Notes: generated from the sequence alone by a model not told the origin. DNA of 55,345 nucleotides from a virus (IMGVR_UViG_3300044971_001115:1-55345), one strand, 5' to 3'; positions 7,277 to 37,338 are shown, counted from the first letter of the stretch. A program made the numbers and translations.

Positions 7277-7729
7277 ATGCACGAGAATCATTTAGAACTA
7301 GCAGAGAAACTTTCTCACCTACTTGGTGACGTGGTCACTGTTGCTCACATTACTCAGGGCTACCACTGGAACGTAAAAGGTATCGAGTTCTCTCAGCTGC
7401 ACGAATTCTTTGCAGACATCTACGGAGACATCGACGGTTCAATTGACCCGCTAGCCGAGAACATTCGTAAGATTGGCTACGACAGCCCTTACCTACTTCA
7501 GGACTTCATCGAGCTTGGCTGCATTGACGAGCGTCGCGTAACTGGCAATGCTCAGGAGATGCTTACTTCTCTAGCTCGAATCAATGCCACCGTTATTAAT
7601 TGTCTAACCGGGGCGTTCCACTCTGCCGACGAGTGCGACGAACAGGGTATCGCTGATTTCCTAGCAGGCCGCATTGACATGCACAAGAAGTGGCAGTGGC
7701 AGATCGAATCTAGTCTCGGAATTCGATAA
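7277..7729 (+). CDS. dps: Dps-family mini-ferritin
   Basis: YHWNVKGIEFSQLHEFF, DPLAENIRKIG and HKKWQW motifs; ferroxidase H/H/D/E residues present. Confidence 0.92.
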   Translation: MHENHLELAEKLSHLLGDVVTVAHITQGYHWNVKGIEFSQLHEFFADIYGDIDGSIDPLAENIRKIGYDSPYLLQDFIELGCIDERRVTGNAQEMLTSLARINATVINCLTGAFHSADECDEQGIADFLAGRIDMHKKWQWQIESSLGIR

Positions 7730-16700: not shown

Positions 16701-18712
16701 AAGATGTAGTCCCTGAAGCCCCTAAGGTAGAAGAAAACCCATACCTAGCAAAAAGTAGAGGCCCTATCCGTAATGAAAGGGATGCTGCTTATAGAGCCGG
16801 AATGGAAAAAGAGGCAAAATCAAAGCCAATAGTTTCTAGGTTGATGGAGCTTTTGAATTTAAATGTATCTGAAGTAACAGACATTCAGGATCAAATCAAT
16901 AAGGGCGACTGGAAACATGAAAACGGATCATACTCCGAGGCTAAATCCGGAGCCTTCTCGAAATACAACAAAATTCTTGTTGAATTTGGTGAATATGAGC
17001 CTAGTAGTTCTACATACCTAAAGAACGGCGAGACTGGTCTAGCCACTTGGTTGTCCGACGAACTAGGAATGGATATAAAAGATCTTGAGATTAAACAAAG
17101 AACATTAAAATCAGGATCAACTAGACCTACTCAAAAATTTGGATCACCAAAAACATTCAATTCAAGCCTCCGACCGCTACTAAACGGTGCAGACTATTAC
17201 TACGTAGATACAGATGCCCTGGCTTTCTATATTTACCCAAACGAGGACCTAAAAAAGGCCGTGCTAGAGCAGATAAAAAACGGTGACCTAACCTGGACAG
17301 GCGGAAAAGCTGGTAAAAGTGCTATGTCCGTATCTGTAGATAAGCCTAAGTACGCATTTAAATTGGAAACTAGTCCAGATCGTAAAACACGCACCTGGGT
17401 GTTCGACGGCACCGAAGAAAATAAGAAAGAATTTAAAGAGTATATAAAGAAAACATACAAGCAAGATCAGGGGTCTAAGGTAAAAGCCCCTAAGGGCTCT
17501 GACTTCAGTGCAATTGGCTATTCCAAGATGGACTCGATTAAAGACTTCCTAGATCCTGCAAACGGTGCCGTCCTTTCTATTGGAGATACAACAACTAATG
17601 AAGAAGGAAAGTCTGTCACTGTTGATGAGGACTTCTTCTTACCGAATAACTTTATAACCTACCAAGAACCTAGAGCTGTCCTCCGTAGGTTCGGATCTCT
17701 TGCAATCCCCCCGACTGACCAGGAGTCGCTCGACCCTGCAGAAGTGGCAGAGATGAAGTTCGACTGGATAGAAAAGAATAAAAGCAGGTTCATATATGCC
17801 AATTCAGCAAAAATCGAGGAGCTGGCACTAAAAAAGGCTGCTGAACTTGGGTACACCAGCCCTAGAGACAGAACTCTATACACGGAAGGAACCGTGCAGT
17901 CTGTGCTCAACTATGTGAATGCAGATAATAAAATTGTAGTTAGTGATTTCCTAGACTACGTATATAAAAACTACCCAGAGAAATATAAAAATACTGAAAG
18001 ATACGAACAACTTAAGAAATATTCAGAATTTGACTCTAAGTTAGATGCATATGCTAAGGATGTTGCAAAAGCAAACGTTACCGTAGCAATCGACGGTTTA
18101 GACCTGATTAGTGTATTAGAAGACGGACGACTTAAGAATCAGTTTGAAACCGGGACTAGTGGCGGGTCATATTTTCCAGATATAAGAATAAAAAACGAAT
18201 TAAATATCTCTGGCACCCCGATAGACGCCTCAAATGAAAAAAGACCTATTTTTGGACACCTAACTACATTTGAAGACTCAAAACTTCCTAAAGATCCTAG
18301 ATCTAAGAAGAACATCTTGCACGTGGCTAGCTCTTTCACTAAAGGATACGGATCCTTTAAAGTAATTATGAAATCTTCAGTTAAAGAAAGAACTACATTT
18401 ACAGCTGGAGACTCAATGGGCGGTAGTCAAATTGCTCAGGTGGTATCTCCAAATGTTGACCGAAAAGCTATGAAACTAGCCGGCTTTGTGGCAGACCCAT
18501 ATACTGCCCTAAACTACACTCCCGAGTCGGTAGCAGGGTACTATGTAGAAGCCCAGATCCACGGCGGAGTTAGTCTCTCCGACATCGAGAGAATCATTTA
18601 TGTAGGCGAGGACTCTGACGAGATATTACAACTTGTGAAAGCTAAGCTAGGAGAGCTAGGTCTAAGTATCCCACTTGAAATTCTTAAATTAGCTCAGGTA
18701 TCGAAGGAATAA
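7733..18712 (+). CDS. Giant polyvalent protein, 3659 aa: multiple ADP-ribosyltransferase domains, HipA/PI3K-like kinase, ParB/Srx domains, C-terminal DUF3626-like domain
   Basis: Three VIP2/Alt-like R-S-ExE domains (VFRG..REDEVVLPR; VYRG..FLSAS..EKEVIF; LYRG..FSSTT..EKEVLLP); Arr-like FYHAT..LKVGD; kinase FYVK..NE..WLANWD..DN..VDPGG; ParB EGHHR; KNQFETGTS..EAQIHGG. Confidence 0.88.
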   Translation: MSEYLRKILGAGKTPLIKSQPLAALTADAGPDIPGGEGANKGFWRKQLRDPRTKQFIPMDAFIICTINVPGVGIFKATGQFKGNKKIGIATIRVAGNKNVPDGDYQVPHTDVLGAAEGMIKQKDLDRVLDKADGVIDDPKNILPPGTPMAGESVKAPVALKKAIDGEEALSKIKGEAALVAKEDGRFPIARGAGDIKTAAKRQYAGVFEALKKEQPDLVKDFNSFDEFWAYADKNIAIDASQRWADSVDEIPELTKATNRIYARDVLGMEPDGLITFYRNSINHHNDPNKAAAGYISLDQRMAWNYNSDKEQSGQDGRYIVRVKPDEVLGLLGYSRVPDEYGVVVGMDVTSQEGRYERVGDLAWSPLNPLMDPTKTQMSGGGDSWFRQFRPASSFDFPVLDSKPFEAGESWSDFYKQFNMQKGDIPKKYDELFGEGAFDQDFPDSRGVPNYSRFVNNAFTEKGGKYAFDPLYLSTEFPMSSATSMEPNKNDELDLGLKFLSTIQELSGIPFMVHRSHDKSDPRLKVKEAKTKKPKAVKEAAKEVETPVGSVVKDLTGFTKVSDQLGSNKGGLYKDPITGQQFYVKFGDKARIENEALASDIYKLAGINATDLQIGTLDGKDVIYSPWIEGTSKDVKDKIIHLASTVNERETKTDPKIKASVEEAQRGFAVDAWLANWDAVGSAYDNLVFDKDGKPLRVDPGGALLYRARGELKGDAFGDEVTELDTFTQYSGTPLAGNTALELFRSMPRRRKFESAKIVHKITPEQIEQLVDSRISDPETRKVLKDRLIARRQNIIERFSLEGLVSDKQEKDGDSYVDKVYYDDIRRSEELMAPGGPGGPRISTDAGDTSGYLDRYFDDNAPLVDEVDGNDIKEILQATVVKDMVNTVNKEEGNDSSANEVFRRGLYGTLVAQHNIVYSELKSEDSDFANQFPTFNSYFKYVTEELAISDKLLVGDVNNSLASDYKKEAEHAQSWSTYFSPEKMALQKKINRKYAEKILKLNPDGKIRIYRNANSQVFKYDTPEAALAGYWSFDRNFAWAFNSNQTERSANRSSYAGRYSALISVNEITGIIGMMHVTDYETYKTDNVLDEMPLSILPNEVLRGVLSDQKYHGRTRDLTLQSGATPRVVQTMAAGTTQWRNNRTAPYVLFNPVPFNLDELKSKAKEKGIDLDNVIDPSNGKPRSLERFLTELPDGRHQIDLFGASDDNSYDLGIYGTDRMSDFQKLMYLQTQLDVPLIVNNFAKDADAHKVETDQFYGAADPMVQKLEPARIQKFITVPEPTLDPGAVLSEADLSAVKKKKDYLDTALDVSKQFTAGDNQAPFNMLDLAAKGRADVVNDYRQQIQDIYDVANAKVSADKEAVATKAADYIQSKIKSAKDSIFTYEQSLKNDPTAKDWAPGAIKDQEEIIAELESGYDRTTNPGHEPVKTRITDLADYYLQTYDPEGSIREKLFSGASEQEVVSALENTPLWKERKAAFEAAGGDTANEWDLVFSDNDSALAAVKSAFAKDSRLSDEENETNRKSALEELRNGGLPVDAPATEPVVETPAVEAPEVKTEALGWDSLGGPTEGRGESELLDNLVDGDFLDVEAIKDGDVPRNFDLDDLIEEQAKSVRYYKGAGFRYMNNLLRLGQSDEPDDLMDKLNKSIADVDELIDTYGDVYTETTVFRGMIDMGRFKETDPPTIVEILESAKPGDILSDPGYTAATTNRSIAIREYGLGRGLSDEVTINASQEQWVPTVFFAIKLPEGSKALGLPLDTNYGREDEVVLPRGAQLKINAIRRVPQVDADGEETGRFNYFVDAENIPSEESKEEPATGKQKNQLIRLYNNVESTEDKEAIFEAVKDENLTAARAKELLEADYSPKPAPEVPKEMAERFFNPKYGAGDSKTDVAMLPIDEVEKYIVQDRAGKDSWGASSDATIEKITEELKNGGSIRDPLVIDFDDENNWGALAEGHHRLIAARKAGLKYVPVRILRAQGRNVSFKNKGKGAPLTFSAGPDKFGYVPGAAHASLFDQFAEKKPETKVKKLGNEPNVKASDEKVDMLISKISRLKIEDVEKLKEAIKNGTLTNELADELSSKAPGSLDILNDPVMLKAILKKHVGDSVTADDMQDLVDGKRTQDGYGFYHATNRELKVGDIIRPTESFAASASHGGLSFDIKKEMSPEEWEKKRAFAKLDGGQGVKGLSFYIARAAEMKGEPDGMGYFYRVKPVGTLSAFPSLEPEWVTDEGWEIVHVVGRASINDTRVDDRIHFDEDTDTLWHDNPEEYNSPDYGKRKTDDIIDTSSGDMPVLNQIIKTESTNEVGKGNTTLSADFDYVSYRKFDSSYLDEDEIEAITEYRAGGYAQINELLRTARLRNSEVPEEKVQKWIDTLDSAIDTWGSPMGGSVRNVVYRGQVLSGGSAPEVGEADMTEVINRLSPGMILEDRGFLSASTSPTIAYKEFGPGLYERGAVKGDTVFWAINVPEDVKGLFSPQDIGIAAEKEVIFHRNSKLAIKGVRKIVGQDDHARYFIEADMLAPESELIPKTREESSESSPELAETLAEIAKNREEPESTEPPKSAENGPSIWGRINLRNIKDSFKYIADDPEFSDLVKQYSGSDEDIDKLKEILTEKGLNKKNEVSDPYSKFTSAAEKEYKKIDPNLDTETGIAPASPYGGIEDSGLGTTGYVDSSSVLDALGKDGWTFNNDDSARAAVKKRISEEGFTSPVVLIYDRGAKTFSLKNLEADSDRIIAAQDLKRSTPVVVEMGGMSSNPRFFGAMYTPKNLKPTEAIKEDYPDVSGIPDLPTPSRSKEEKDAIEAYQKWGFYDLKTHMDSPYGHPDKSKEEREDLDKVVDNLDKLTSTEPIPDGTTLYRGVDLSNDPEWYEYFSELKAGDRLLTPTRFSSTTLDPIIADEYSVPLSRIKTDPENTKSVVIKITTGEGATGAAFENDKTLFSREKEVLLPLTANIEVTKVEKDSDGVIRVEGVYSKTPKVEKQIEEGGGFTLTPDPEDVVPEAPKVEENPYLAKSRGPIRNERDAAYRAGMEKEAKSKPIVSRLMELLNLNVSEVTDIQDQINKGDWKHENGSYSEAKSGAFSKYNKILVEFGEYEPSSSTYLKNGETGLATWLSDELGMDIKDLEIKQRTLKSGSTRPTQKFGSPKTFNSSLRPLLNGADYYYVDTDALAFYIYPNEDLKKAVLEQIKNGDLTWTGGKAGKSAMSVSVDKPKYAFKLETSPDRKTRTWVFDGTEENKKEFKEYIKKTYKQDQGSKVKAPKGSDFSAIGYSKMDSIKDFLDPANGAVLSIGDTTTNEEGKSVTVDEDFFLPNNFITYQEPRAVLRRFGSLAIPPTDQESLDPAEVAEMKFDWIEKNKSRFIYANSAKIEELALKKAAELGYTSPRDRTLYTEGTVQSVLNYVNADNKIVVSDFLDYVYKNYPEKYKNTERYEQLKKYSEFDSKLDAYAKDVAKANVTVAIDGLDLISVLEDGRLKNQFETGTSGGSYFPDIRIKNELNISGTPIDASNEKRPIFGHLTTFEDSKLPKDPRSKKNILHVASSFTKGYGSFKVIMKSSVKERTTFTAGDSMGGSQIAQVVSPNVDRKAMKLAGFVADPYTALNYTPESVAGYYVEAQIHGGVSLSDIERIIYVGEDSDEILQLVKAKLGELGLSIPLEILKLAQVSKE

Positions 18713-18923: not shown

Positions 18924-20870
18924 ATGGCAGAAGAAAAACCACAAAAATCAACTCTCGGCGATCGCATGAGCGACGTCGGTGGTATGCGTGTATACAGGGA
19001 CGGCAAATGGATCCCTCTTGAGCAGCTCTCTAAGAAACCTAAAGAAGAGCCTAAACCTAAGGTCCTAGTTAAGGACGACTCTGCCCCTAAAAAGAAACCA
19101 ATAACGGCGTCTAGTTACGCTCAAACAGTACTCCGCTCATCAGGCGGATTTGGTGCCCCTGCAGAGGTCTACGACCCTAAAAACGTACGAAAGGCCGTCA
19201 AAGCAGCGGGCCACCTAGTTCCTGAGGAACAAGACCTAGCCGATGCCCTACTGGAGATTGTTGCCAAGCACGGAAAGTTCAACGCCGACAATACCGGCGT
19301 CTGGGCTGGCTATGACTCTGCTGAAAAGAATGCAGAGAACGCTAAGATTGGCGTCAAGTGCGGCAACTGCGTATTTTTCAATTCACCTAACGGCTGCTCG
19401 ATTATTGACTCTGAAGTAGAAGAGGGCGGACTCTGCCGTTTCGCAGTTCTACCAGATGGCTCGGTTACTCCTCCTGCACTCACCGCTGATGCAGATTACG
19501 GAGACGAGTGCCCTCCTGCAACTCAGGACATCGTTCTAAACATCAATAACCGACAGAAAGCTATTGACAATGTCGGCTATGGCCCGCTAAACCCAGAGGA
19601 ACCTAACGACGAGTTCTGGGGAGAAAAGGCAGATCGCTGGAACATCGACCCAGTAGAGGCCAAGAAGAGCATCTGCGGCAACTGCGTCTTCTTTGACCGT
19701 CGCCCGAAGACCCTAGACTGCATTGAGACCGGACTTGCAGAAGGCGGCTCCGGAGAGCAGAGTGCCTGGGACTCAATTGACCAGGCTGAGCTTGGTTACT
19801 GCACCGCTCTAGACTTTAAGTGTGCTGCTAGCCGTACCTGTAACGCGTGGGCAGCGGGCGGCCCTATCACTGAAGACGCAGTCAAAGCTGGCGGCTACGG
19901 TGTAGGAGAGGACATTGATGCCCAGGTTCACAAATTCTTCAACAAGCCTGTCTACGATCTACCAAAAGGCCTAAAGAACTACACCGAAGAGGCTGACGAA
20001 GACTATGAATATGACGTACGTTTGGACGACCTAATCCCAACTCAGCGTACCGTTAACATGCGTCGCGTTGAAGACGTAATGGGCTCTGATAAGCCAATCG
20101 TAGTTTGGATCAACGAAGACGGGGAGCCAGAAATTGTTGACGGCCACCACCGTTCAGTTGCCTATCGACTAGATGGCAGCGACACCATCCGAGCCAAGGC
20201 CTACAAGACGCCTGGATTTGTGGCTACTGCTGGATCAAAGCCTGCTCCAAAGAAAGACCGCATCAAAGGCTCCGACAAGAACAAAAAAGGTTCTGCAGCA
20301 TCTGGCCGCAAGATCACGTTCTCTAAGGCCGTCGAGACATCTCTAAAGGAAAAGGTCAAGTCCCACAATGAGAGCGTCTCTGCTGATGGTAAAAAAGTAA
20401 CTCTTTCTATGCTCAAGGCAGTCTACCGCCGTGGTGCGGGTGCTTTCTCTACCAGCCACCGCCCAGACCAGAACCGCAACTCCTGGGCTATGGGCCGCGT
20501 TAACGCTTACCTACGTCTAGTTAAGTCTGGCAAGCCTGACAACGCTAAGTACACCACCGACAACGACCTACTCCCTAAGTCTCACGCAAGATCTACCAGA
20601 GCTTCAATAGTTGCGTCTGCTGCTTTCGAGGATGACTACGAGTCCGAGCTGTCTGTAGTGCTATTGCCAGAAACAGAGTATACTAGTAAAGAGCAAGCGA
20701 TTCTTTCTCTAGCCGAGTTTTCTGGCGTTGGCTATGAAATCATGCCAGCACTAAATGCTGCATGGGCCAGAGCCGAATTGGCCGGAGAAAACTCTTTTGA
20801 GAGAGCCAAAGACCTTGCTACATCTCTGCACGAAAGCCGAGATGCCGAACTACTTCCTAAGGAGTTTTAA
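18924..20870 (+). CDS. Multidomain head-associated protein: two Cys-rich (HiPIP-like) modules, a ParB/Srx domain and a DUF5824-like basic domain
   Basis: KCGNCVFF..C..GLCRF; ICGNCVFF..YC..KC..TCNAW; LIPTQ..IVDGHHR; LKAVYRRGAGAF..HRP..WAMGRVNAYL. Confidence 0.78.
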   Translation: MAEEKPQKSTLGDRMSDVGGMRVYRDGKWIPLEQLSKKPKEEPKPKVLVKDDSAPKKKPITASSYAQTVLRSSGGFGAPAEVYDPKNVRKAVKAAGHLVPEEQDLADALLEIVAKHGKFNADNTGVWAGYDSAEKNAENAKIGVKCGNCVFFNSPNGCSIIDSEVEEGGLCRFAVLPDGSVTPPALTADADYGDECPPATQDIVLNINNRQKAIDNVGYGPLNPEEPNDEFWGEKADRWNIDPVEAKKSICGNCVFFDRRPKTLDCIETGLAEGGSGEQSAWDSIDQAELGYCTALDFKCAASRTCNAWAAGGPITEDAVKAGGYGVGEDIDAQVHKFFNKPVYDLPKGLKNYTEEADEDYEYDVRLDDLIPTQRTVNMRRVEDVMGSDKPIVVWINEDGEPEIVDGHHRSVAYRLDGSDTIRAKAYKTPGFVATAGSKPAPKKDRIKGSDKNKKGSAASGRKITFSKAVETSLKEKVKSHNESVSADGKKVTLSMLKAVYRRGAGAFSTSHRPDQNRNSWAMGRVNAYLRLVKSGKPDNAKYTTDNDLLPKSHARSTRASIVASAAFEDDYESELSVVLLPETEYTSKEQAILSLAEFSGVGYEIMPALNAAWARAELAGENSFERAKDLATSLHESRDAELLPKEF

Positions 20871-21781: not shown

Positions 21782-24700
21782 ATGTTAGAGAAACTCACTG
21801 CCCTCCTAGCCGCATTTAACGACGGTGCCAACAAAGGCTTCTGGCGTTTCCAGTGGCGTGACCGTCTTGGCCGTTGGGCCGAGATGGGCCGTGGTGTTCT
21901 TGGTAAGCTTCGTCTAAAAGATGGCTCGATCGTCTCTGTTCGTGGTGTGTTCGTCGGTGGTACCGAGAACCCTGGCTTTGGTCGCGTTCTAGTTGAAGGT
22001 CAGTCTGACAAAGGCATTCCAGACGGTATCTATAAGTTTGCTTCTGGTAACGGTGAAACATTTGAAGGTCTTATTCCTGAAGAAGACCTAATCCGTCAGG
22101 GCCTACTTCCTGAGGGAGGTGCCGCTAAGAAGGACATTTTTGGAAACTCTGTTGGCGAGCGTCTAGACAAAGACATCCAGGACTTAGAAACAATCAGTCG
22201 CGAAGACATTACCGACGAAGACCGCAAGCTTGCCACTGAAACTCCTGACGAGCGTCAGAAGGCCATCATCGAGGAAGAGCGTGCAAAGTCTCCTGTTGCT
22301 AAACTTCCTGCTGGTACAGAGTCTGACCCGGACCAGCTTGCCAAGGCTCTAGAAGATGCTGGTGTTACCCCTAAGGCCGAAACTCCTCCTAGTCCAAAGG
22401 TCGACCGTGCTACTGATGGTTGGCTTCGCGGAGCTCGGGAAGAGGGCGAGCCAATCTACTGGATGTCTTACAACCAGGGCACTGGAAAGCACAGCCTAAA
22501 CGAGGGTCACATCATTGATGGCTACGTTTATAAAGGTAAATACAACCAGTTCACTGACCAAGGCCTAGAGGGTGTTGGCAGTGTTGACGACCTAATTGCA
22601 ACTAGAAAAAATAAAAATTCTGGACTTGTAGACATTTATCGCGGAAACATTCCTGCTATCGAAGACGAGAATGGTAAGTTCCGTAAGGCAGAAACTAGCG
22701 ACATCTTTAGGATTGAACGCGAGCAGGATGCTGCTAAAGCTGCTCAGCCGCCTACTCCTCCTCCATCAGACAAGGTAGCCCCGGCTGCCCCTCCAGCAGG
22801 GCCTCCTTCAGATGGCGGCGAGAAGTTCCTACCTGCCCCTCCAGAGCCAGGTGCTCCTGCAGAGCCAAGCAAGGCTGAGATTCCACCTGCCCCTAGTGCA
22901 CTTGATGGTTTGGACCCTTACACCCGTGGCGTCGTATCCAACATTATTGACGGGGCTCAGGGTCAGACCCCCAAACAAATCAACAAAAGCCTGAAGAAGC
23001 TTCACGACCTGGCAAGCAAGCCGGACTCAAACCGAGACGGCCTAAAGGTCGCTATCGACGAGCTCTCTAAACTTGTAACAGACAAAGGTGGAGTTCCATT
23101 TGTTCCAGGCGGAGAAGACGAAAACAACTTCGGGTTCAAAGAAACTACTGACGACTTTGACAAGCAGAATGGCCAGCAACGCTGGGAGAAGGACTACGAA
23201 GGTGGTCAGACTCTTCTAGAGGTTGTCAAGGGTGACGACGGCACGTACGAAGCTATTGCATATAGTGGAAACGACAACGGTGCCTGGGCACGAGAAGACC
23301 TACTACCTGTTACAGACGGTAAGGGCATCTTTAAGGAAGCTGACAAGCTAATCAATGACAACATTGAAGCTGAAGCTAAAAACGATGCTCTAGTTGAAAA
23401 AGCTATCCAGGACGCAATGGACGGCAAGCCAGTTAGTGCTGACGAGATTATTAAGAAGAGTTCCCCTACTCCTGTAGGCCGAGGCGGCTTCAACTTCGAA
23501 GAAGATGAAGAGCAGCCAGCTACTGCACCTAAGACTTCTAAATCTAAGAAGAAGCCTGAAACAGAAACTACTTCTCCAGCGACTGCAAAAGGCCCTGTTA
23601 AGCAGGAACCTATCACTCCTGAAGAGCTTGATGCTCTAGCACCGGCCGAGTCCTATGAAAAGTTCTTTGGCTTCTTACCTAGCGTAGAGCAGACTCGAAT
23701 TCTAAACTCTATCATCGTTGCTAAAAAGAAGACAGCCGTTCGTGCAGGTGCAGGTGCAGGTAAGACTACAACCTATATCGGTCTTTGTAAAGCTCTTATG
23801 GAGCTTGACCCTAATGCTCGCATTGCTCTACTACAGCTTAACCGCACTAACGCTGACGAGGCTGCAAAGTTAGTTCCATCGAACACAATTTCAAACACTA
23901 TTGATGCATATTTTGGCCGTCCGCACATCGTAAATATGGCTGCAGGCAAGACCGGAACAATGCGTGGCTCGGCAAATGACCCGCATGTTACTCGTTACAT
24001 GTCTAGGGAGTCTTGGCACATTTCTGGTGCAAAAGACCTAGGCAATCACTTCCTAATGGATGAAATGAACATTGGTGGAGAGAACTACGACATTAGCAAG
24101 GTTGCGGGTCTAGTTAGTAATGCTGTAGAGCTTTTCTGCCGTAGTACTGATCAAAAAATTGGCCCTCAGCATTTTAACGTTAAGACTAAAGCTAAAAAAG
24201 CTACAAAGACTGAAAAAGCAGTTGAGTCTGAAGATGTAGATATTCCAGACGAGCAGATGAAGAAGCTTCTTAGCTATGCCAATGCTTACTGGGAAGATCT
24301 AAATCACATACCAATTTGGGATGAGCGAGTGTCTTTCACAAAGAAAGATGGAACCCCTGGTAAGAAGTTTGCTAAGGGTGTTACAGCAATTAATCCTACT
24401 CACGCCTTCAAGATGTGGGCACTGACCGATCCTGATCTATCGAAGTTAAAGGCTGGCGATGGCAAGCCAATTACCCACCTGCTTCTAGACGAGGCTCAGG
24501 ACACTAACGCTGTATTTGAAAAAGTTATTAAGGACAACATAGATCGAGGCACTGCTCCGCTTATCGCAATGGTTGGTGACCGTGCTCAGTCTATCTACAA
24601 GTTCCGTGGTAGCCGTGATGCCCTAACTACCTTTGCAGAGAAACGAGCTGGTGCAAGCCTAACTCTCACTACTACTCGACGCTTTGGTGAAGACCTACTT

Positions 24701-27700
24701 CCAGCGGCTAACGGGTTCCTAAACCTACTAGCTGAGGATTACCGCCTAAAGAGCGAGATCGCCGGAGGAGAAATCCTTGACAGCGAAGACCTAGAGGCTA
24801 TCCCAGATTTCAAGGGCAATACTGCTATTCAAACTAGAACTAACGCTGAAGTATTTAATCAAATTGAGAAGTTAGATCAGCTGGGCTACACCGTTGGTGT
24901 TACCGACAAAATGTATGATGACCTTACTCAGGCCACCGCACACTTGGAGTGGCTAGGCCAAGACTGGAACTCGCGTCCAAAGAAGCCTTCAGGCTTTAGC
25001 AGTGACTTCGCTGGTATGAACTCTCTTAAAGATCTAATTCAAGCTGCCGAGATTGATCCTAAGTCTCGTCCTGGTTTCTGGTGGAGACTCATTCAGGAAG
25101 ATCCTGAAGCTAAAATTAAGCGTCTTAAGGATTTGGCTGCAAAGGTAACCGTTAAGCGAGACCAAATCGATGTTAACAAGATTACAAATCTTGATGCTAC
25201 CGATGGACAGGCTGGCGACTTTAATGGCGTCAAGTGGGCTATCGAAGGCGACAGCATAATCCTATCTGGAGATGTTTTTGCTAAGATCCCTGGTAGAGAA
25301 GATAGAAACTTCCGACAGGCGGTTATTGGTCAAAAAGCCAAAGGCAGCACCGCGGCTATCGAACCTGAAATCAAACTACCAGACGGAACTACACCTCAGT
25401 GGCGTACCGTAAAGGTTGGAAACGACTGGCTAAACAAGATTGTTGTCCCTGACGACAGGGAGCGTGGCGAATACCTAAACAGCCTTGCTTCTCTATTTAT
25501 GGATAACACCAAGGATGCGGTTATTCCTGATGTTATGGTCTCTACTGTCCATCGTTATAAGGGTCTAGAACAAGATAACATTATAATTGCACCTGACTTC
25601 GCGATTCCGGAGCTGGATGAAAATGGTAAGATACTTATCCCCAACGCGGAGGAGCTAAACCTAGCTTATACAGCTGTAACTCGTGCACGTAAGCGAATTT
25701 TCTATGGCCCTCTAGCCTACGGTCTAGAATACTCTGGCGAAGACGGTATGCGTAAAGCAAACAAAGATCTAGAGAGAGAATCAGAATTCGGCATGGATCT
25801 GGTTAGGAGCGAGGCCGAGGCTCAGGCAGCTATTACTGCAAGGCGTAATAACCCTACTAAATCTGCTCTAAAGTCTGGCCAGGGTCAGTCGTTTGCTGGC
25901 GGGTTCAAGTTCTACGAGGATGAAGAAACCTCTTCAGTTTTGGAAGATCTTGTCAAGAACAACCCATACGTGACAACCACTGTACCTGTTAGCCGCTCTA
26001 CCACCCCTAATGGTGGCGGCAAGAAGATTGTTGACGGCTGGGCTATCGGACAGAATGGCACCTACACTGCTCGTATCAATGGAACTACATGGAACATTCG
26101 TGAAAACCGAGATGGCACTATTACTGCTCGTCCTAGGACTAACGAAGGAAAACTAGGAAGCTTCAAGTTCAACGACTGGGATCAACTAGAGAACAACTTC
26201 CCTGGACTCCAAGAACAGGCTTCTAAGGCAAACCGAGATGTTCTAAAAGATAAGGTATCTGCGTTTGACAAAGATGGTCAAATTGCCAAGGCCATTGACA
26301 ACGGTGCTGACCCTGCTGATATTACAGATATGATCAGTAAAAGCGACGATTTTGCAGATGCCATCGAGAACGGCGATGTTAACTTTGTTAGCCTCTTTGT
26401 GGCTCTGGACAACGCTGGTTCGTCTAAGCTAAATCGACCTAATCCAAAGACTGCTAAGCCTGAGGACCCTAAGGCGAAGAAGGCTACAAAAACAACTGCT
26501 GAAGTTGCCTCTGCCCTATATACCGAGTTTGGCAACCCTGCTGATGATCGCAAAGAGATTGACATCTTTGAGAAACCTGGAAGCCTAGAGAGACTTCTTA
26601 GACAGAAGGGTGATGGCTCTGTAGAGACTACCGTTAGTAAGCTAGTTAAAGAGGCTGGCGGACGTGTAAACCCTGACGGATCAGTAACACTTTACAAGAA
26701 AGTCCACACGGAAACTGCCGGACCAGCTAATGGCCAGGACGTGGAACTAGAAGTACGCTGGACAGGCAACAAGGCATCTAGCGGTACAATCAGCTACATT
26801 ATTACTGACATGGAAGATGGTAGTCAAGACGAGTACTATGACTTCTCCCCTACCCACTCTTTGAGTCGTATTTTTAGTACCCTAGACCGTCGTCTAAACA
26901 CATACTTCCTACGCGATCCTGAATCACTGCCAAGCAACCTGAACCCAGATACGTATGGTGGCATCCGCGGTGCGGTTAATGCCATGCGTACCGGATTCCG
27001 TCAGACTACTGCTCGAAAAGGTATTGGTGGCTTGACTGGATTCCTTCAGGATCCGTCAGCCTCGGACACCAACGTTAAGTTACGTAGTCCAAGGGAGCAC
27101 GCTGCTATTGCCCTAAACGGTCGCGATTCGCGACTAAACAATAGCGACCAGAACTGGCACACAATCCAGCGTAAGGGTATCGCGTCTATATTTGACGCCG
27201 TGGACATGGGAGAGCGTGACGGAGCTATTGCTGCAGTCCGTAGATACTTAAACGATATTCCTAATACACCAGCTGCTCAGGGTGTTGCGAAAGACTACAT
27301 TAGAAGCTCGGTTAAGTCCAAGTTCCCTGACATCTCTCCAAACAAATTGGAAGCAATGCTAGAGGACATTTTTGACGGTGTTAACAGCTCTGACCCAGTT
27401 CCGACTGGTGCAGTAAAGGTTCCGCACGTATCTAAAAATGGTGTTCAAATTAAACCTAAACAGAAGGTCCGCTGGAAGAACAACATTGACGGAGAAGTTG
27501 TCGGTGAAGTAGTAGAGACTCTGACTGTGGACAACCCAGACGGTGGCCGCTACGCCTACCGAGACTTTGTATTTGTTAAATTCAAGAGCGGAGAGGTTAC
27601 AAAGCTTAACGCTAAGAACATGTCGGTTGTTGACGATGCCACCCCTGTTACCAACTACTCTCCTTGGGTTCGAAACAACGATCTAAAGATTAAGCGTGCT

Positions 27701-29710
27701 GAACAAGCCGGTCTAACGTATGACACTAACACTGGAGAATACTACAACAAAGAAACCGTAGTAGATATAGCCGACTTTGCAAATGAGAGATACGCTTCTT
27801 CGATTGAAGATGGAGAGCAAAAGCCTATCAACGACATTAAGTCTGGAGACGTCATTTATGACGAAAACGGAGATGCTTATGGTCGTGTAGCTAAGATTAA
27901 GTCTGGTAAAAAAGATGGCGTTAAGGTTTACAAGGTACAGTTTGACCCTCAGGATAACCAAGAAGACCTATTCTTTGATGACAACGAGCAGATATCTGTA
28001 CCTAAGCCTAGACAGTCGGTGGCTTCTCAACCTAAGACTACATCTAATAAGGCAATTGCTAAGGCAGCAGCCGACCTAGGTCTGGCCCCGAGTGCAGATG
28101 GTACGTCTACTAAAAAGAAGATAGCGGCCCATCCTGCAACTAAGAACCCTGATACCAACACCTCTATTAAAGGATCTAACAACAAGAAGGCCGTCAAGCC
28201 TACCAAGGAAGCTGAAGAGGTTCTAGATAAGCAACTAGAAATTGGCAAGCAAGCCTGGGACATGACTGAACCTAGAATTATCGAAGAACTAAATGCTATG
28301 GGCTATAACATCAAACCTGGAACAAAGTATGAAGATCTAGATAAAAATATAGCCGAAGAATACGATAAGAAGATTAAGGCTAATTCCAAGGCCAAGCAAG
28401 ACTTGGACGAGTTTGTCGAAGCAACGAAAGCTGGCATTAAAGGCGACAAAGATGTGTCTGACCTTATTGAAAAAATGAAGGCCGAAGGCTTAGCTGATGC
28501 TCAGGGCGAGATCAAATTTAAGGATCTAGCTGCTAGGCTGAAGGCTGCTGGACTTGAAGACTATAGCTACGAAATTCGTGGATTAGGTTCCGACGGAGAG
28601 TCCGACCTATGGAGCGGATTAGCTGCTTATAAGACGCTAACTACCCCTGACCTGAAAACCAAGTCTGCCCGTCTATGGAAGGCTCGTGCTGAAAAACAGG
28701 CCGATACTAACAAGGCTAGAGACAATAAATCCAAGTTCACTAAAGATCTAAAAACCGCAACTAAAGATGCTACCTTGAAAACTCTAAAGGATCTAGGCGT
28801 ATCATTTAATAACGTATCGCTAGATGAGTTTGAGGGTAACATCATATCTGTTCAGGATAACCAACCTCTGGACGCATTTAGCTCCTTTAAGTCAGCACGT
28901 GCCCTTCGAGCAGCTTTCGAACACATGCCTGCTAACAAGATCCGTCAGCTCGCTAAGTACCTTAAAGACAATAACGCTAAACTAGAGGTTATTTCTGGTG
29001 TAAAGCGTGGACACTTCACTCCGAAACCAAACGGAAATCTGGAAATTACTCTATCAACTGCTAAGGGAACTCAGGCTAACGACAGTACTGCACTGCACGA
29101 GCTTCAGCACTTCTTAGACAAGGTGGACCCTAACAGCAATACTCTTGCACACACCTGGCTACACCGTCGTGCAATGGGTGAAGATGGCAACCTACGCCCA
29201 ATCATGACCTGGGGTAAGGGCGAGACCGGTTTTGCTATTGCTGACCTACAGTCTCCATACACTACTCGTCGTTACGAGCGTGGTGACCTAATCCTAAACC
29301 CTAACTTCGATGGAAACGAAGTGAACTCCACCATCATGGAAGACCTATTCCTAGATGCAGGCTCAGTCTCGCGTCCTGATGGTCAGTTTGCAATTGTCAA
29401 GCGAATGGTTCCAAAGATTAGCCGAAAGACTAAAAAACCTGTAATCGGACCTGACGGCAACCCATTACTGGTCCCGCAGTACGACTGGGTGTTTGATCCT
29501 TTCTACGACCCTAAGAGCGATAAGTGGTATGCTGATAGCTCTATGAAGGAAGAACTAGATGTTCGCGACTTCTATGGCCGTAAGAAAGAAGACGGTCTAG
29601 ACCGAAATGTTAAACACTACGGAATGGGAATGATTCTTATGATGAACGACTGGTCCGCTACTGAAGGTCTAGACACCAACCTGGGCACGTCTGGAAAGAA
29701 GGGTAAATAA
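21782..29710 (+). CDS. Giant polyvalent protein, 2642 aa: UvrD/Rep-type SF1 helicase plus C-terminal zincin metallopeptidase
   Basis: Helicase motifs AGAGAGKTT, LLLDEAQD, VGDRAQSIYKFRG, TRRFG, RTNA, STVHRYKGLE, YTAVTRAR; ALHELQH (HExxH) with a downstream NE; AAGGA RBS. Confidence 0.9.
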   Translation: MLEKLTALLAAFNDGANKGFWRFQWRDRLGRWAEMGRGVLGKLRLKDGSIVSVRGVFVGGTENPGFGRVLVEGQSDKGIPDGIYKFASGNGETFEGLIPEEDLIRQGLLPEGGAAKKDIFGNSVGERLDKDIQDLETISREDITDEDRKLATETPDERQKAIIEEERAKSPVAKLPAGTESDPDQLAKALEDAGVTPKAETPPSPKVDRATDGWLRGAREEGEPIYWMSYNQGTGKHSLNEGHIIDGYVYKGKYNQFTDQGLEGVGSVDDLIATRKNKNSGLVDIYRGNIPAIEDENGKFRKAETSDIFRIEREQDAAKAAQPPTPPPSDKVAPAAPPAGPPSDGGEKFLPAPPEPGAPAEPSKAEIPPAPSALDGLDPYTRGVVSNIIDGAQGQTPKQINKSLKKLHDLASKPDSNRDGLKVAIDELSKLVTDKGGVPFVPGGEDENNFGFKETTDDFDKQNGQQRWEKDYEGGQTLLEVVKGDDGTYEAIAYSGNDNGAWAREDLLPVTDGKGIFKEADKLINDNIEAEAKNDALVEKAIQDAMDGKPVSADEIIKKSSPTPVGRGGFNFEEDEEQPATAPKTSKSKKKPETETTSPATAKGPVKQEPITPEELDALAPAESYEKFFGFLPSVEQTRILNSIIVAKKKTAVRAGAGAGKTTTYIGLCKALMELDPNARIALLQLNRTNADEAAKLVPSNTISNTIDAYFGRPHIVNMAAGKTGTMRGSANDPHVTRYMSRESWHISGAKDLGNHFLMDEMNIGGENYDISKVAGLVSNAVELFCRSTDQKIGPQHFNVKTKAKKATKTEKAVESEDVDIPDEQMKKLLSYANAYWEDLNHIPIWDERVSFTKKDGTPGKKFAKGVTAINPTHAFKMWALTDPDLSKLKAGDGKPITHLLLDEAQDTNAVFEKVIKDNIDRGTAPLIAMVGDRAQSIYKFRGSRDALTTFAEKRAGASLTLTTTRRFGEDLLPAANGFLNLLAEDYRLKSEIAGGEILDSEDLEAIPDFKGNTAIQTRTNAEVFNQIEKLDQLGYTVGVTDKMYDDLTQATAHLEWLGQDWNSRPKKPSGFSSDFAGMNSLKDLIQAAEIDPKSRPGFWWRLIQEDPEAKIKRLKDLAAKVTVKRDQIDVNKITNLDATDGQAGDFNGVKWAIEGDSIILSGDVFAKIPGREDRNFRQAVIGQKAKGSTAAIEPEIKLPDGTTPQWRTVKVGNDWLNKIVVPDDRERGEYLNSLASLFMDNTKDAVIPDVMVSTVHRYKGLEQDNIIIAPDFAIPELDENGKILIPNAEELNLAYTAVTRARKRIFYGPLAYGLEYSGEDGMRKANKDLERESEFGMDLVRSEAEAQAAITARRNNPTKSALKSGQGQSFAGGFKFYEDEETSSVLEDLVKNNPYVTTTVPVSRSTTPNGGGKKIVDGWAIGQNGTYTARINGTTWNIRENRDGTITARPRTNEGKLGSFKFNDWDQLENNFPGLQEQASKANRDVLKDKVSAFDKDGQIAKAIDNGADPADITDMISKSDDFADAIENGDVNFVSLFVALDNAGSSKLNRPNPKTAKPEDPKAKKATKTTAEVASALYTEFGNPADDRKEIDIFEKPGSLERLLRQKGDGSVETTVSKLVKEAGGRVNPDGSVTLYKKVHTETAGPANGQDVELEVRWTGNKASSGTISYIITDMEDGSQDEYYDFSPTHSLSRIFSTLDRRLNTYFLRDPESLPSNLNPDTYGGIRGAVNAMRTGFRQTTARKGIGGLTGFLQDPSASDTNVKLRSPREHAAIALNGRDSRLNNSDQNWHTIQRKGIASIFDAVDMGERDGAIAAVRRYLNDIPNTPAAQGVAKDYIRSSVKSKFPDISPNKLEAMLEDIFDGVNSSDPVPTGAVKVPHVSKNGVQIKPKQKVRWKNNIDGEVVGEVVETLTVDNPDGGRYAYRDFVFVKFKSGEVTKLNAKNMSVVDDATPVTNYSPWVRNNDLKIKRAEQAGLTYDTNTGEYYNKETVVDIADFANERYASSIEDGEQKPINDIKSGDVIYDENGDAYGRVAKIKSGKKDGVKVYKVQFDPQDNQEDLFFDDNEQISVPKPRQSVASQPKTTSNKAIAKAAADLGLAPSADGTSTKKKIAAHPATKNPDTNTSIKGSNNKKAVKPTKEAEEVLDKQLEIGKQAWDMTEPRIIEELNAMGYNIKPGTKYEDLDKNIAEEYDKKIKANSKAKQDLDEFVEATKAGIKGDKDVSDLIEKMKAEGLADAQGEIKFKDLAARLKAAGLEDYSYEIRGLGSDGESDLWSGLAAYKTLTTPDLKTKSARLWKARAEKQADTNKARDNKSKFTKDLKTATKDATLKTLKDLGVSFNNVSLDEFEGNIISVQDNQPLDAFSSFKSARALRAAFEHMPANKIRQLAKYLKDNNAKLEVISGVKRGHFTPKPNGNLEITLSTAKGTQANDSTALHELQHFLDKVDPNSNTLAHTWLHRRAMGEDGNLRPIMTWGKGETGFAIADLQSPYTTRRYERGDLILNPNFDGNEVNSTIMEDLFLDAGSVSRPDGQFAIVKRMVPKISRKTKKPVIGPDGNPLLVPQYDWVFDPFYDPKSDKWYADSSMKEELDVRDFYGRKKEDGLDRNVKHYGMGMILMMNDWSATEGLDTNLGTSGKKGK

Positions 29711-35181: not shown

Positions 35182-35292
35182 TACTAATAGGTAGAGTGCC
35201 TTGCAACTTATGTTTGTGTAGTCCCTCGGCCTTGATTGTTCACCATGAATGGTAAAACATTCATCAAACCAAATACTGGCCTAGGAGGTACA

Positions 35293-37338
35293 GTGTACGA
35301 CCAAATTAAAACTCAGCTAGACACCATTGCTGAGCTAAGCGACGAACAAGTCGCAGAGCTACAGGGTGGAATCGTTGGCGAGTTCGAAAAGGTTGAGGGC
35401 GAAGAGCCTACTCCTGAGACAGTTGATGCTATGACGTCACTTGCTGACTCCCTAGACATCGTGCGTGGTGAGCTAGCTCGCCGAGAGGCACAAGCTGAAC
35501 AGCTTGCCGCCCAGGCTGCAGAAGCCACCGCACGTGTTAAGGGTGTAACTGAAGAGACATCTGGAGAGGAAATGGCTATGGATGAGCCTATGGAAGAGGA
35601 GACTCCTGTAGAGGAAGCTCCTATGGAAGAGGCCCCTGTCGTCGAAGAAACCGAAACTGCAATGGAAGAAGAAGAGGCTCCTATGATGGAAGCCCCTGAA
35701 TCTGAAGAAGCTCCAATGGATATGGAAGCTCCTGTTGAAGAAGAGGAATCACCAGCTGATGAAGCTGAAGACGCCAAAGAAGAGAAGAAGAAGTCCGAGA
35801 GCGAATTTAGCTCGGAATCTGAAGACTCCGCTCCAGCCGAGGAAGCAGTAGTAGTAGAGGAAGCAGTAGAACTTGCTGTTGAATCTGAGCCTGCCGCCGA
35901 AGCATCAACCACTCAGGTAGAAGGATCCGAACTTTCGACCGACGAAACAACTAATCAAGAAACATCTATTGAGCTAGAAGCTCAGGAAGAGCAGGCACCC
36001 GTGACCGCCGCAGCAGAACAGCCTTTCGAGGCCCCAGCTGACCGTCAGCCTGTAGTTCAGGTTTCGGAGGCAGCCCCAGTAGCAATTACTGCAGGTGCCG
36101 ACATTCCTGGTTACACCGCTGGCAGCACAATTGACAGCATGTACGACGTAGCTTCGGCTATGGAGAAGCGTATCCACTCGCTCCGTCGTGTTAACGGTGG
36201 AGATGGAGAGCAGCACATTGTTGCATCTGTCACCACTCAGTTCCCAGAGGATCGTATCCTCACATCCGACGCAGAGTCAAACGCACAGAAGATTGCAGCC
36301 GTTTCCGGCCCAGAGGCACTTGTTGCTTCGGGTGGTCACTCAGCTCCATTCGAAGTTAAGTATGACATCTTCAGCATTGGTTCGACATCAGTACGTCCAC
36401 TTCGTGACGCACTGCCTCGTTTCCAGGCTGACCGCGGCGGTATCCGTTACATCGTTCCACCTACGTTTGCTAACGTAACGTCGAACACCACCACCTATTC
36501 AGACGCTGTTGGCATCTGGACATCTGCAAATGACTCTGCTGAGACACCTAGCCCTGCGGCTAAGCTCTCGAAGACCATTGCTGCTGCTTCAGAAACCACA
36601 GCCCAGACTGACGCTGTAACCCTACAGCTACAGTTCGGTAACCTAATGACCCGTGCTTACCCAGAACTAATTGCTCGTCACAACGAGCTAGCTCTAGTTC
36701 AGCACGCTCGTGAGGCTGAAGAGAACCTAGTATCGAAGATTGCTTCGGCATCGACCGCTGTTACCACAACCAACCTAATTGGTTTTGGTCGCGACTTCCT
36801 AGTACAGGTACGTCGTGCAGCTGTTGCTTACCGTAGCCGCCACCGTCTAGACCCTAAGGCTCGCCTTAAGGCTGTAGTTCCTTTCTGGATCTACGAGGCA
36901 ATGGCTTCGGACTTGACCCTGAACATGCCTGGTGATGGTACCCTCGGTGTGTCTGAGTCTGAAATCAACGGCTACCTAGCTAACTCGAACGTAGACATCG
37001 TTCCAGTACTTGACAACACCTCGTCGTCACTTGCTGGCTCGTTCAACATGTTCCAGGACGCTGCAGCTCTAAACGAGTTCCCGGACACCTTCCGCTGGTT
37101 CCTATTCGCTGAAGGAACATTCTTGTTCCTAGACGGTGGAACTCTGGACCTTGGAATCATTCGTGACTCGACTCTTGTCGGCACAAACGATTACAAGATG
37201 TTCGTTGAAACCTTCGAAGGTTTGGCAAAGGTTGGTATCGAGTCACTCGCTATCACCTCGACCATCTCGATCAACGGTTCAGCTGCTGCACTACGCGACA
37301 CCACCGGCAACACTGCTGCCGCTACTATCGAGCTTTAA
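35293..37338 (+). CDS. Major capsid protein with a fused acidic N-terminal scaffold-like region
   Basis: Start reassigned to GTG 35293 behind GGAGG. Coiled coil then ~140 aa Glu-rich linker (EEAPM repeats); core RPLRDALPRFQADRGGIRY and FLFLDGGTLDLGIIRDSTL..NDYKMFVETFEG, resembling actinophage capsids. Confidence 0.9.
   Translation: MYDQIKTQLDTIAELSDEQVAELQGGIVGEFEKVEGEEPTPETVDAMTSLADSLDIVRGELARREAQAEQLAAQAAEATARVKGVTEETSGEEMAMDEPMEEETPVEEAPMEEAPVVEETETAMEEEEAPMMEAPESEEAPMDMEAPVEEEESPADEAEDAKEEKKKSESEFSSESEDSAPAEEAVVVEEAVELAVESEPAAEASTTQVEGSELSTDETTNQETSIELEAQEEQAPVTAAAEQPFEAPADRQPVVQVSEAAPVAITAGADIPGYTAGSTIDSMYDVASAMEKRIHSLRRVNGGDGEQHIVASVTTQFPEDRILTSDAESNAQKIAAVSGPEALVASGGHSAPFEVKYDIFSIGSTSVRPLRDALPRFQADRGGIRYIVPPTFANVTSNTTTYSDAVGIWTSANDSAETPSPAAKLSKTIAAASETTAQTDAVTLQLQFGNLMTRAYPELIARHNELALVQHAREAEENLVSKIASASTAVTTTNLIGFGRDFLVQVRRAAVAYRSRHRLDPKARLKAVVPFWIYEAMASDLTLNMPGDGTLGVSESEINGYLANSNVDIVPVLDNTSSSLAGSFNMFQDAAALNEFPDTFRWFLFAEGTFLFLDGGTLDLGIIRDSTLVGTNDYKMFVETFEGLAKVGIESLAITSTISINGSAAALRDTTGNTAAATIEL

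Follow-up and report, generated by a model that had tools for sequence, protein, structure and literature searches.

The virus record IMGVR_UViG_3300044971_001115, analyzed here over its complete length of 55,345 bases (hereafter the window; CheckV completeness, 32%), encodes P0002, a giant protein of 2,642 amino acids (aa) located between the portal and major capsid protein genes. From its domains, P0002 can be described as an actinobacteriophage polyvalent protein composed of an N-terminal domain, an FBH1/UvrD-like 3′-5′ superfamily 1 (SF1) helicase, a module without a known family, and a zincin-like metallopeptidase. Each of the last three modules appears to be preceded by a disordered linker that starts with a short aromatic-acidic motif. 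We tentatively propose, with somewhat less than even confidence, that the C-terminal zincin of P0002 itself recognizes these motifs and cuts there. The features of P0002 on which the proposal is built are as follows.

21782..29710, + strand: open frame of P0002, the 2,642-aa polyvalent-type protein with four modules
21821..22096, + strand: N-terminal domain, aa 14-105, "GANKGFW.Q.RD," shared with the sister protein P0003
23483..23512, + strand: motif copy 1, GGFNFEEDEE, aa 568-577, before the helicase
23594..25858, + strand: folded SF1A helicase core, aa 605-1359 (AF2, Foldseek, Pfam, PHROG)
25898..25927, + strand: motif copy 2, GGFKFYEDEE, aa 1373-1382, after the helicase
25928..27964, + strand: middle module, aa 1383-2061, conserved in homologs
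27965..27991, + strand: probable motif copy 3, DLFFDDNEQ, aa 2062-2070, immediately ahead of the C-terminal module
28679..29707, + strand: C-terminal zincin-like domain, modeled aa 2300-2642 (HExxH, AF2, VIA-align)
29096-29110, + strand: HELQH (HExxH), aa 2439-2443

The two motifs named in the original prediction, GGFNFEEDEE and GGFKFYEDEE, are present and flank the helicase. Their common core is a hydrophobic residue-x-Phe-x stretch followed by three or four Asp/Glu residues. In its strict form, F.F.{0,1}[DE]{3,}, the motif occurs in two copies, both in P0002, and nowhere else in the window's 21 open reading frames (ORFs; 16,575 aa). Both copies lie in linkers directly outside the folded helicase (residues 17-65 and 821-861 of the AlphaFold2 [AF2] model), where the predicted local distance difference test (pLDDT) score is <50. 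The same low scores mean that a clasp, in which the two copies pair onto the helicase, gains no support from the model, which is not a disproof. Further ideas about the motif were set aside. "GGF" as a common cleavage core was too weak a signal, occurring 5 times in the window proteome, always in head-internal proteins, versus ∼3 expected by a rough estimate from typical residue frequencies. The residue order and position presumably do not fit those of single-stranded DNA-binding protein tails, clamp-binding motifs, or the type VII secretion signal YxxxD/E.

It is very improbable that the motifs are functionless, either as a by-product of acidic low-complexity linkers or as a relic of the insertion of a helicase cassette. 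The linkers in the P0002 family are indeed generally acidic, and short gene conversion could homogenize the copies and produce their likeness within a protein. However, shuffled versions of P0002 contained a mean of 0.02 strict motifs, with two copies reached in 0/2,000 shuffles, and the motif is constant next to a following linker of freely varying length and sequence. The motif is also retained down to about 30% identity among relatives. At the DNA level, copies 1 and 2 are alike at 24/30 bases, while only 15 of the 60 flanking bases are alike; because the flanks are unrelated, a recent DNA duplication of the motif is ruled out as well.

The conservation of the motif in homologs, on which the original prediction hinged, was assessed in relatives of P0002. 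A search restricted to proteins of 1,453 to 4,624 aa found 37 relatives, 20 of which have the whole P0002 architecture (2,175 to 2,606 aa) and were aligned with P0002 to give 21 sequences. Within the close clade (P0002 and P0004 to P0016; n = 14), a loose form of the motif lies at most 160 aa upstream of Walker A in 13/14 proteins, the miss being P0011 with the upstream sequence GAEFFEDPEQ, and at most 120 aa downstream of motif VI in 14/14. The background of the loose motif is 26 in 41,700 aa, or ∼0.1 per 160 aa. For copy 2, D1380 is invariant in the 21 sequences and F1377 is at least 90% conserved. Beyond the close clade, the motif is still seen at 30 to 39% identity (P0017/18, P0019, P0020, P0022, P0024/25, and the viral loci L007, L008, L009, and L011), in the altered forms ISFFDEDTP/IIFFDEDSE, IIFEDDEP/FDFDDDD, LDFGDDE/DFDDDE, and IVFDED/ISFDTD. 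The upstream copy is clear and the downstream copy weak in P0017/18, only the upstream copy is present in L014, and P0021, P0023, and P0026 to P0040 have no motif near the helicase.

Where the motif has changed, its copies have changed in concert. Using one protein per clade from 7 clades, copies 1 and 2 of the same protein scored a mean BLOSUM62 value of 22.0 over 12 columns around the anchor Phe, with anchors picked by eye, versus 8.5 for copy 1 compared to copy 2 across clades and 10.1 and 4.3 for orthologous copies compared to each other. When the pairing of copies was permuted, the observed mean was reached in 1/5,040 arrangements, namely, the true pairing only. Lineage-specific linker composition or short gene conversion could contribute to this likeness. 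Taken at face value, the greater resemblance of the copies within than between lineages makes it likely that a single partner, evolving along with the phage lineage, reads both.

A probable third copy of the motif stands at the end of a small beta-rich stretch, and its FF..E core is kept in the close clades. If this copy is counted, a motif in front of each of the last three modules is a more fitting description than the pair of brackets around the helicase that had been proposed. The suggestion that the flanking motifs are sites for the protein's own zincin otherwise remains consistent with their position in disordered linkers and with their association with the zincin-bearing protein.

A zincin-like domain, as anticipated for P0002, was also recovered. 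H2439, E2440, and H2443 of the HExxH motif are invariant in 21/21 sequences, and the AF2 model of the domain (pLDDT, 85.0; predicted template modeling [pTM] score, 0.81) places HExxH in a predicted helix (residues 132-149 of the model). The best VIA-align matches were anthrax lethal factor (Z 8.8 over 160 aa; root mean square deviation, 3.9), PPEP-2 (Z 7.5), and PPEP-3 (Z 7.2), followed by many further zincins at Z 4 to 6. Foldseek matches to the model were weak (best E value, 0.063), with the same zincins in the top rows. Lethal factor and the PPEP-like zincins belong to MEROPS family M34. From sequence and model, the C-terminal module appears to be a zincin-like metallopeptidase of a distinct lethal-factor/PPEP-like family, for which a peptidase role is predicted. 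The invariant HExxH and a fold closest to the lethal factor/PPEP zincins make it a plausible reader of the motifs on the same chain.

The domain is rare, with 50 proteins found by HMMER among 1.84 billion representatives, and it is mostly located at the C-terminal end. HE..H is present in 37/44 newly retrieved representatives (P0161 to P0204). Ten shorter proteins of 476 to 710 aa that are without helicase motifs were aligned, and these span the region of P0002 downstream of copy 3. Four of them (P0181, P0174, P0192, and P0179) carry a motif of the DFDFDD-, DFNWDD-, or DFDE-type in an N-terminal leader, at a position that aligns with copy 3. The form and position of these leader motifs, rather than their count, are suggestive.

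Under the proposal that the zincin cuts at the motifs, P0002 would be made late and would probably enter the procapsid. The zincin would then recognize the motifs before modules 2 to 4 and cut, either in cis or between copies, and the helicase and the other modules would become separate proteins once cut, whether in the head or following delivery into the host. The freed helicase may act on the entering phage DNA by clearing bound proteins or processing DNA ends; by analogy with UvrD, PcrA, and FBH1, it could strip off host proteins, e.g., RecA-type filaments or restriction/repair complexes. The roles named in the original prediction (DNA entry, protein displacement, and R-loop removal) are conceivable for such an enzyme. 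Zincin-like peptidases were previously proposed to process polyvalent proteins (Iyer et al. 2017, PMC5512222, accessible text). A stronger version of the proposal, in which the giants are true polyproteins with a dedicated lethal-factor/PPEP-like zincin and a private site code, site and protease changing together by lineage, seems somewhat unlikely. If true, it would represent a phage counterpart of the 3C- or NS3-type polyprotein processing of RNA viruses.

Several observations weigh against cutting by the zincin. The co-occurrence of motif, zincin, and architecture is largely a single evolutionary event, since one clade has passed on all three as a set. Copy 3 could belong to a folded beta domain, as its last strand, and is less certain than copies 1 and 2 for that reason. 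The fold match of the zincin is moderate, with a Z of 8.8 where VIA-align warns that 7 to 8 is a common best score, and the candidates for the third metal ligand are H2457, which is at least 90% conserved, and E2481, which is invariant yet located in a predicted strand. The zincin is not of the MPTase-PolyVal type, as PF18818 was not matched by the whole of P0002 (E ≤ 0.01) or by its last 642 aa (E ≤ 1); the distant helicase giants P0026 to P0033, P0035, P0037, and P0038 do carry PF18818. Zincin-only proteins contain 14 loose motif matches versus ∼11 expected, as estimated from the background rate and the protein lengths, and viral scans (P0181 and P0174) and two metagenome scans for the genomic context of the stand-alone zincin-module proteins returned nothing. 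Distant helicase giants, including gp77 of the isolated Arthrobacter phage Mimi, have plain Glu/Pro-rich linkers without the motif. The virion RNA polymerase of phage N4 is a giant injected protein that stays uncut (PMC5512222, accessible text).

Other results bear on the proposal less directly. A complex prediction of the zincin domain with a 50-residue linker containing copy 2 gave no answer (score, 0.01; mark, 0.32) and speaks neither for nor against binding. No natural genes split at the motifs were found, which is weak evidence: among 120 helicase-segment matches of 473 to 1,507 aa, just one is close, a window-identical fragment, and no zincin domain was found in proteins of 602 to 2,000 aa.

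The motifs could instead remain uncut and act as short docking or regulatory elements, a reading that we consider only slightly less probable than cutting by the zincin. In one version, the motif would be an aromatic-acidic pseudo-substrate that mimics single-stranded DNA and silences the helicase or, as a pro-segment, the zincin while the protein is packed beside the genome; in the other, it would be a handle for a phage assembly partner or a host protein. Known DNA-mimicking tails, e.g., that of T7 gp2.5, combine an acidic run with aromatic residues. A short, disordered, conserved motif fits binding as well as it fits cleavage, and any single partner that co-evolves would account for the concerted change of the copies. 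Mimi gp77 and many distant giants also flank the helicase with strongly acidic linkers, suggesting a general need for negative charge, and at the extreme N terminus of the stand-alone zincin-module proteins cutting would remove only 11 to 16 residues. However, a Phe and an Asp that are invariant and fixed in spacing point to a specific pocket more than to bulk charge. For docking, a single signal per protein ought to be enough, but a copy stands before each module, and a conserved host partner would not predict the lineage-specific co-variation of the copies. AF2 docked neither motif on the helicase, a weak point because fuzzy contacts are often missed by such models.

The remaining candidate for a reader of the motifs is encoded by the gene next to P0002. 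The neighboring features in the window are as follows.

3441-4844, + strand: terminase large subunit
5498-7273, + strand: portal
7277-7729, + strand: Dps/ferritin-like protein of 150 aa (Pfam Ferritin, E 2.2e-16; PHROG 3636, "DNA binding protein")
7733..18712, + strand: P0003, a 3,659-aa sister polyvalent protein with three ADP-ribosyltransferase stretches and a ParB-like region
14480-14503, + strand: IHFDEDTD in P0003, flanked by a folded region and by the linker that leads to the second ADP-ribosyltransferase domain
16664..16687, + strand: EEGGGFTL, P0003 aa 2978-2985, after the PF03496 matches and sharing only GGF with the motif
18924-20870, + strand: 648-aa ORF with Cys-rich segments, between P0003 and P0002
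30439..35166, + strand: 1,575-aa protein with a prohead protease (PHROG 18402, PHROG 859)
35236-37338, + strand: major capsid protein (MCP)

It is improbable that the motifs are cut by the prohead (capsid maturation) protease of this next gene, in parallel to T4 and giant phages, in which proteins inside the head or destined for ejection are trimmed at a short Glu-ending motif. The head maturation protease domain is immediately downstream of P0002, in the 1,575-aa protein (PHROG 18402, "head maturation protease," E 1.5e-59; PHROG 859, E 1.6e-89), and isolated actinophage homologs of this protein are annotated "capsid maturation protease." Pfam Peptidase_S78 was matched only at an E value of 0.14, and the protease region had no meaningful match among PDB sequences. 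The gp245 protease of SPN3US processes capsid, portal, and ejection proteins, with cleavage after A-X-E (PMC10052503, accessible text), and the acidic motif of P0002 could present Phe-x-Glu/Asp in matching positions. The distant helicase giants P0026, P0028 to P0033, and P0035 even carry Peptidase_S78 (PF04586) on the same chain. However, the expected main substrates are without the motif: in four relatives, those with fetched downstream genes, no loose match was found in the MCP (including its N-terminal region) or in the protease/scaffold proteins, while the zincin-bearing giants hold 13 loose matches versus 3 in 25 other ORFs of at least 200 aa. The only candidate in the window's 1,575-aa protein, SEFADEEEE at aa 1352, has no counterpart in the four relatives. 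The likely maturation region of the MCP follows a different pattern, (F/V)-E-A-P-x-D, in 3/4 aligned MCPs, and the sister head protein P0003 has no strict copy. Because the motif goes with the zincin-bearing protein and does not occur in capsid and scaffold proteins, the zincin of P0002 is favored over the prohead protease.

P0003 contains three stretches matching the Pfam ADP-ribosyltransferase family PF03496 and a ParB-like region, and neither HExxH nor the strict motif was found in it. EEGGGFTL, which had been listed alongside the two P0002 motifs, does occur after the ADP-ribosyltransferase matches, but it is not a copy of the motif. The two loose matches in P0003 are at aa 1940, inside the ParB-like region, and at aa 2250-2257 (IHFDEDTD), the only motif-like site of this protein outside a known fold. 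IHFDEDTD, at a likely domain boundary, is the better candidate site in P0003, and cutting in trans would be implied if it is real. The search returned no relatives of the P0003 region that holds EEGGGFTL and IHFDEDTD, and the region is absent from the P0003 homolog of locus L001, the sole relative recovered.

The original prediction placed a complete SF1 helicase in this head-module gene, and alignment, profile, and fold comparisons all agree with it. K661 (Walker A), D903-E904-A905-Q906-D907 (the DExQD Walker B), G932/D933/Q936, R966/R967, T1255/H1257/R1258/K1260/G1261, and Y1296/R1301 are invariant in 21/21 aligned sequences, a series that fits positions 23678-25700. In UvrD terms, these residues would represent Walker A and B, motifs III to VI, and the arginine fingers. 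The Pfam models UvrD-helicase (PF00580; 47.7 bits, cutoff 23) and UvrD_C (PF13361; 32.0 bits, cutoff 25.6) were matched above their cutoffs, PF13538 was matched below its cutoff (25.1 bits versus 27.4), and PHROG 1967, "DNA helicase," was matched with an E value of 2.6e-42. The AF2 model of aa 540-1400 has a mean pLDDT of 79.7 and a pTM of 0.74. In Foldseek, it matched FBH1 (9xzm; E 1.2e-20), Mycobacterium tuberculosis UvrD1 (7.5e-16), UvrD (1.7e-15), Rep (1.3e-14), and PcrA (4.6e-14), with 13 to 17% identity in the structural alignments and TM-scores of 0.35 to 0.61, consistent with the mobile subdomains of the four-subdomain UvrD fold. The family profile also matched FBH1 among PDB sequences (E 2.7e-41). 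Sequence and model together point to a complete UvrD/FBH1-like SF1A helicase, for which ATP-dependent 3′-5′ unwinding is predicted. No close stand-alone form was present among the 120 matches of 473 to 1,507 aa, the best of which, the window-identical fragment aside, has 29% identity over half the query. A defense role suggested by PADLOC was rejected, as its GajB models matched only through the common UvrD core, which is not evidence of such a role.

The N-terminal domain of P0002 is homologous to that of P0003 (E 1e-9, 32% identity over 94 aa by BLASTP; P0003 counterpart at 7841-8113, + strand), and matches no Pfam or PHROG family. The ∼95-aa domain is kept at the start of P0002 homologs, opens giant ORFs after the portal in several related viral loci (tblastn), and occurs in a reduced form in Mimi gp77. 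Its presence in P0003 and at the head of giant ORFs from related loci makes it a candidate for targeting the protein to the capsid or portal. The middle module has no known family: Pfam gave only a subthreshold CUE match for 25898-27800 (E 0.12), and the protein atlas gave no usable match.

Helicase-bearing giants form a large, mostly uncultured family. Among 76 related viral loci, the helicase is located within an ORF of at least 1,500 aa in 44, and in 33 of those 44, the fetched flanks also encode a protein homologous to the portal, protease protein, or MCP of the window. Among isolated phages, no close homolog was found; the closest record in the phage collection covers 29% of P0002 at 27% identity. 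Many of the loci L015 to L080, from uncultured phages with a related portal, carry the helicase in even larger ORFs, the largest of which is at least 7,274 aa and open at both ends of its locus. Some of these chains also carry ArdC-like, exonuclease, or prohead-protease domains in precomputed Pfam annotations, and their linkers are long Pro-Glu repeats, e.g., PEVPEVPEV.

The large ORFs of the window are all on the + strand and together make up a late module in the order terminase, portal, head, and tail, with the tail genes at the end, after the MCP. The MCP shares 67.8% identity with its counterpart in the metagenome-assembled Actinomycetia phage DSL-LC01, ∼52% with those of Microbacterium phages of 186 to 195 kb, and 46 to 49% with those of Arthrobacter phages. 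Because these best matches are from actinobacterial phages, the phage most likely infects an actinobacterium. The N-terminal ∼270 aa of the MCP are extremely acidic, with repeated A-P-(M/V)-E-E units, and the part common to other actinophage capsid proteins begins near aa 231-257; the acidic region is probably a built-in scaffold (delta) domain.

Several neighbors have features of their own. The Dps/ferritin-like gene is located directly 3′ of the portal within the head module and also precedes the P0003 homolog in L001; its product matches the NCBIfam Dps model under the cutoff (E 7e-11) and could be a packaged DNA-binding or iron-handling protein. Between the P0003 and P0002 genes are a 273-aa ORF and the 648-aa ORF. 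The latter contains two copies of the Cys-rich segment C.NC.FF....C.....E.GG.C.F, with weak Pfam matches to HIPIP and DUF3716, as well as a weak ParB-like nuclease match and DUF5824. A related gene in DSL-LC01 is annotated "high potential iron-sulfur protein," and the product of the 648-aa ORF could be a further internal protein of the head. In the 1,575-aa protein, the prohead protease is located mid-chain (about aa 750-1140), between a 640-aa N-terminal extension and a scaffold-like tail, and two copies of a ∼75-aa repeat, G.(F/Y)PI.N.EDLKNA...GRAK, are present. L001 encodes its counterpart in 2 separate ORFs, DSL-LC01 in 3 genes, and Mimi in 2 genes. A 3,289-aa protein of DSL-LC01 (L003, 22801-32670) contains a ∼83-aa tandem repeat at aa 877 and 960, whose units each end in ARYGEDDEDRTP and are followed by a Pro-rich linker. 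These repeat ends form a further boundary element of the aromatic-acidic type; the giant that carries them lacks a helicase and comes from the nearest named relative.

In 2017, polyvalent proteins of phages and conjugative elements were introduced as widely distributed cargo sent ahead with the DNA by phages and plasmids (Iyer, Burroughs, Anand, de Souza, and Aravind, PMC5512222, cited here and below for its accessible text). P0002 resembles them as a giant multidomain chain, encoded among portal-terminase late genes, that joins a nucleic acid enzyme and a zincin-like peptidase, and it combines several unrelated effector-type domains in the manner that defines the class (the helicase, the zincin-like domain, and two conserved modules without a known family). 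The Alt-like ADP-ribosyltransferase and ParB-like parts of P0003 fit the same description. In contrast, UvrD-like SF1 helicases are reported there only in a few actinomycete plasmid-type giants, while here the helicase is part of a phage head module, and the zincin of P0002 differs from those in PMC5512222 in having no PF18818 match. In the accessible text, "linker" has 0 occurrences and "cleavage" has 3, none about a site motif, so an inter-module motif appears undescribed there. A full-text literature search, which covered few subscription journals, likewise found no sequence-defined processing or docking site for polyvalent proteins.

Another related system is DarB of phage P1, a capsid-borne methylase-helicase that belongs to the head structure and shields DNA on entry (PMC5512222). 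Like DarB, P0002 is a large helicase-containing protein, with a putative place in the head. DarB, however, joins an SF2 (SWI2/SNF2-type) ATPase to an adenine methylase, whereas P0002 has an SF1A helicase and no detected methylase, and packaging is shown for DarB, while P0002 is known from sequence only. P0002 shares its fold and all ATPase and translocation motifs with UvrD, Rep, PcrA, UvrD1, and FBH1 (2is1, 1uaa, 1pjr, 9dci, and 9xzj) but, unlike them, embeds the helicase in a 2,642-aa chain. Like the A-X-E sites of SPN3US gp245 (PMC10052503, accessible text), the motif is a short acidic-ended element in a putative head-internal protein, and one protease could cut many such sites; unlike T4/SPN3US-type sites, it has an aromatic core and a longer acidic run and is confined to the zincin-bearing protein.

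Mimi gp77 (MN234211.2; 2,709 aa; SEA-PHAGES annotation, "DNA helicase") is encoded right after the portal, at the same gene position as P0002. Its helicase is homologous (27% identity over aa 609-1361, E 4e-43) and is the only part that BLASTP aligns; the protein also has a similar N-terminal "QLRD..G.W.EMG" stretch and a C-terminal HExxH. Unlike in P0002, its Glu/Pro-rich linkers flank the helicase without an aromatic-acidic motif.

Polyvalent proteins, capsid-borne helicase fusions such as P1 DarB among them, and the annotation of Mimi gp77 as a DNA helicase were thus already known. The analysis adds an SF1 FBH1/UvrD-like helicase as apparent head-module cargo across a large uncultured family, so that UvrD/FBH1-type helicases join the enzymes that tailed phages appear to carry in the head. 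It also adds a distinct lethal-factor/PPEP-like zincin family tied to helicase giants and a defined, co-varying aromatic-acidic motif before each module. A conserved, disordered, module-delimiting motif of seven residues makes the earlier proposal of processing by zincins directly testable. Should the motif prove to be a cleavage code, it would aid the prediction, from sequence alone, of the mature products of these giants.

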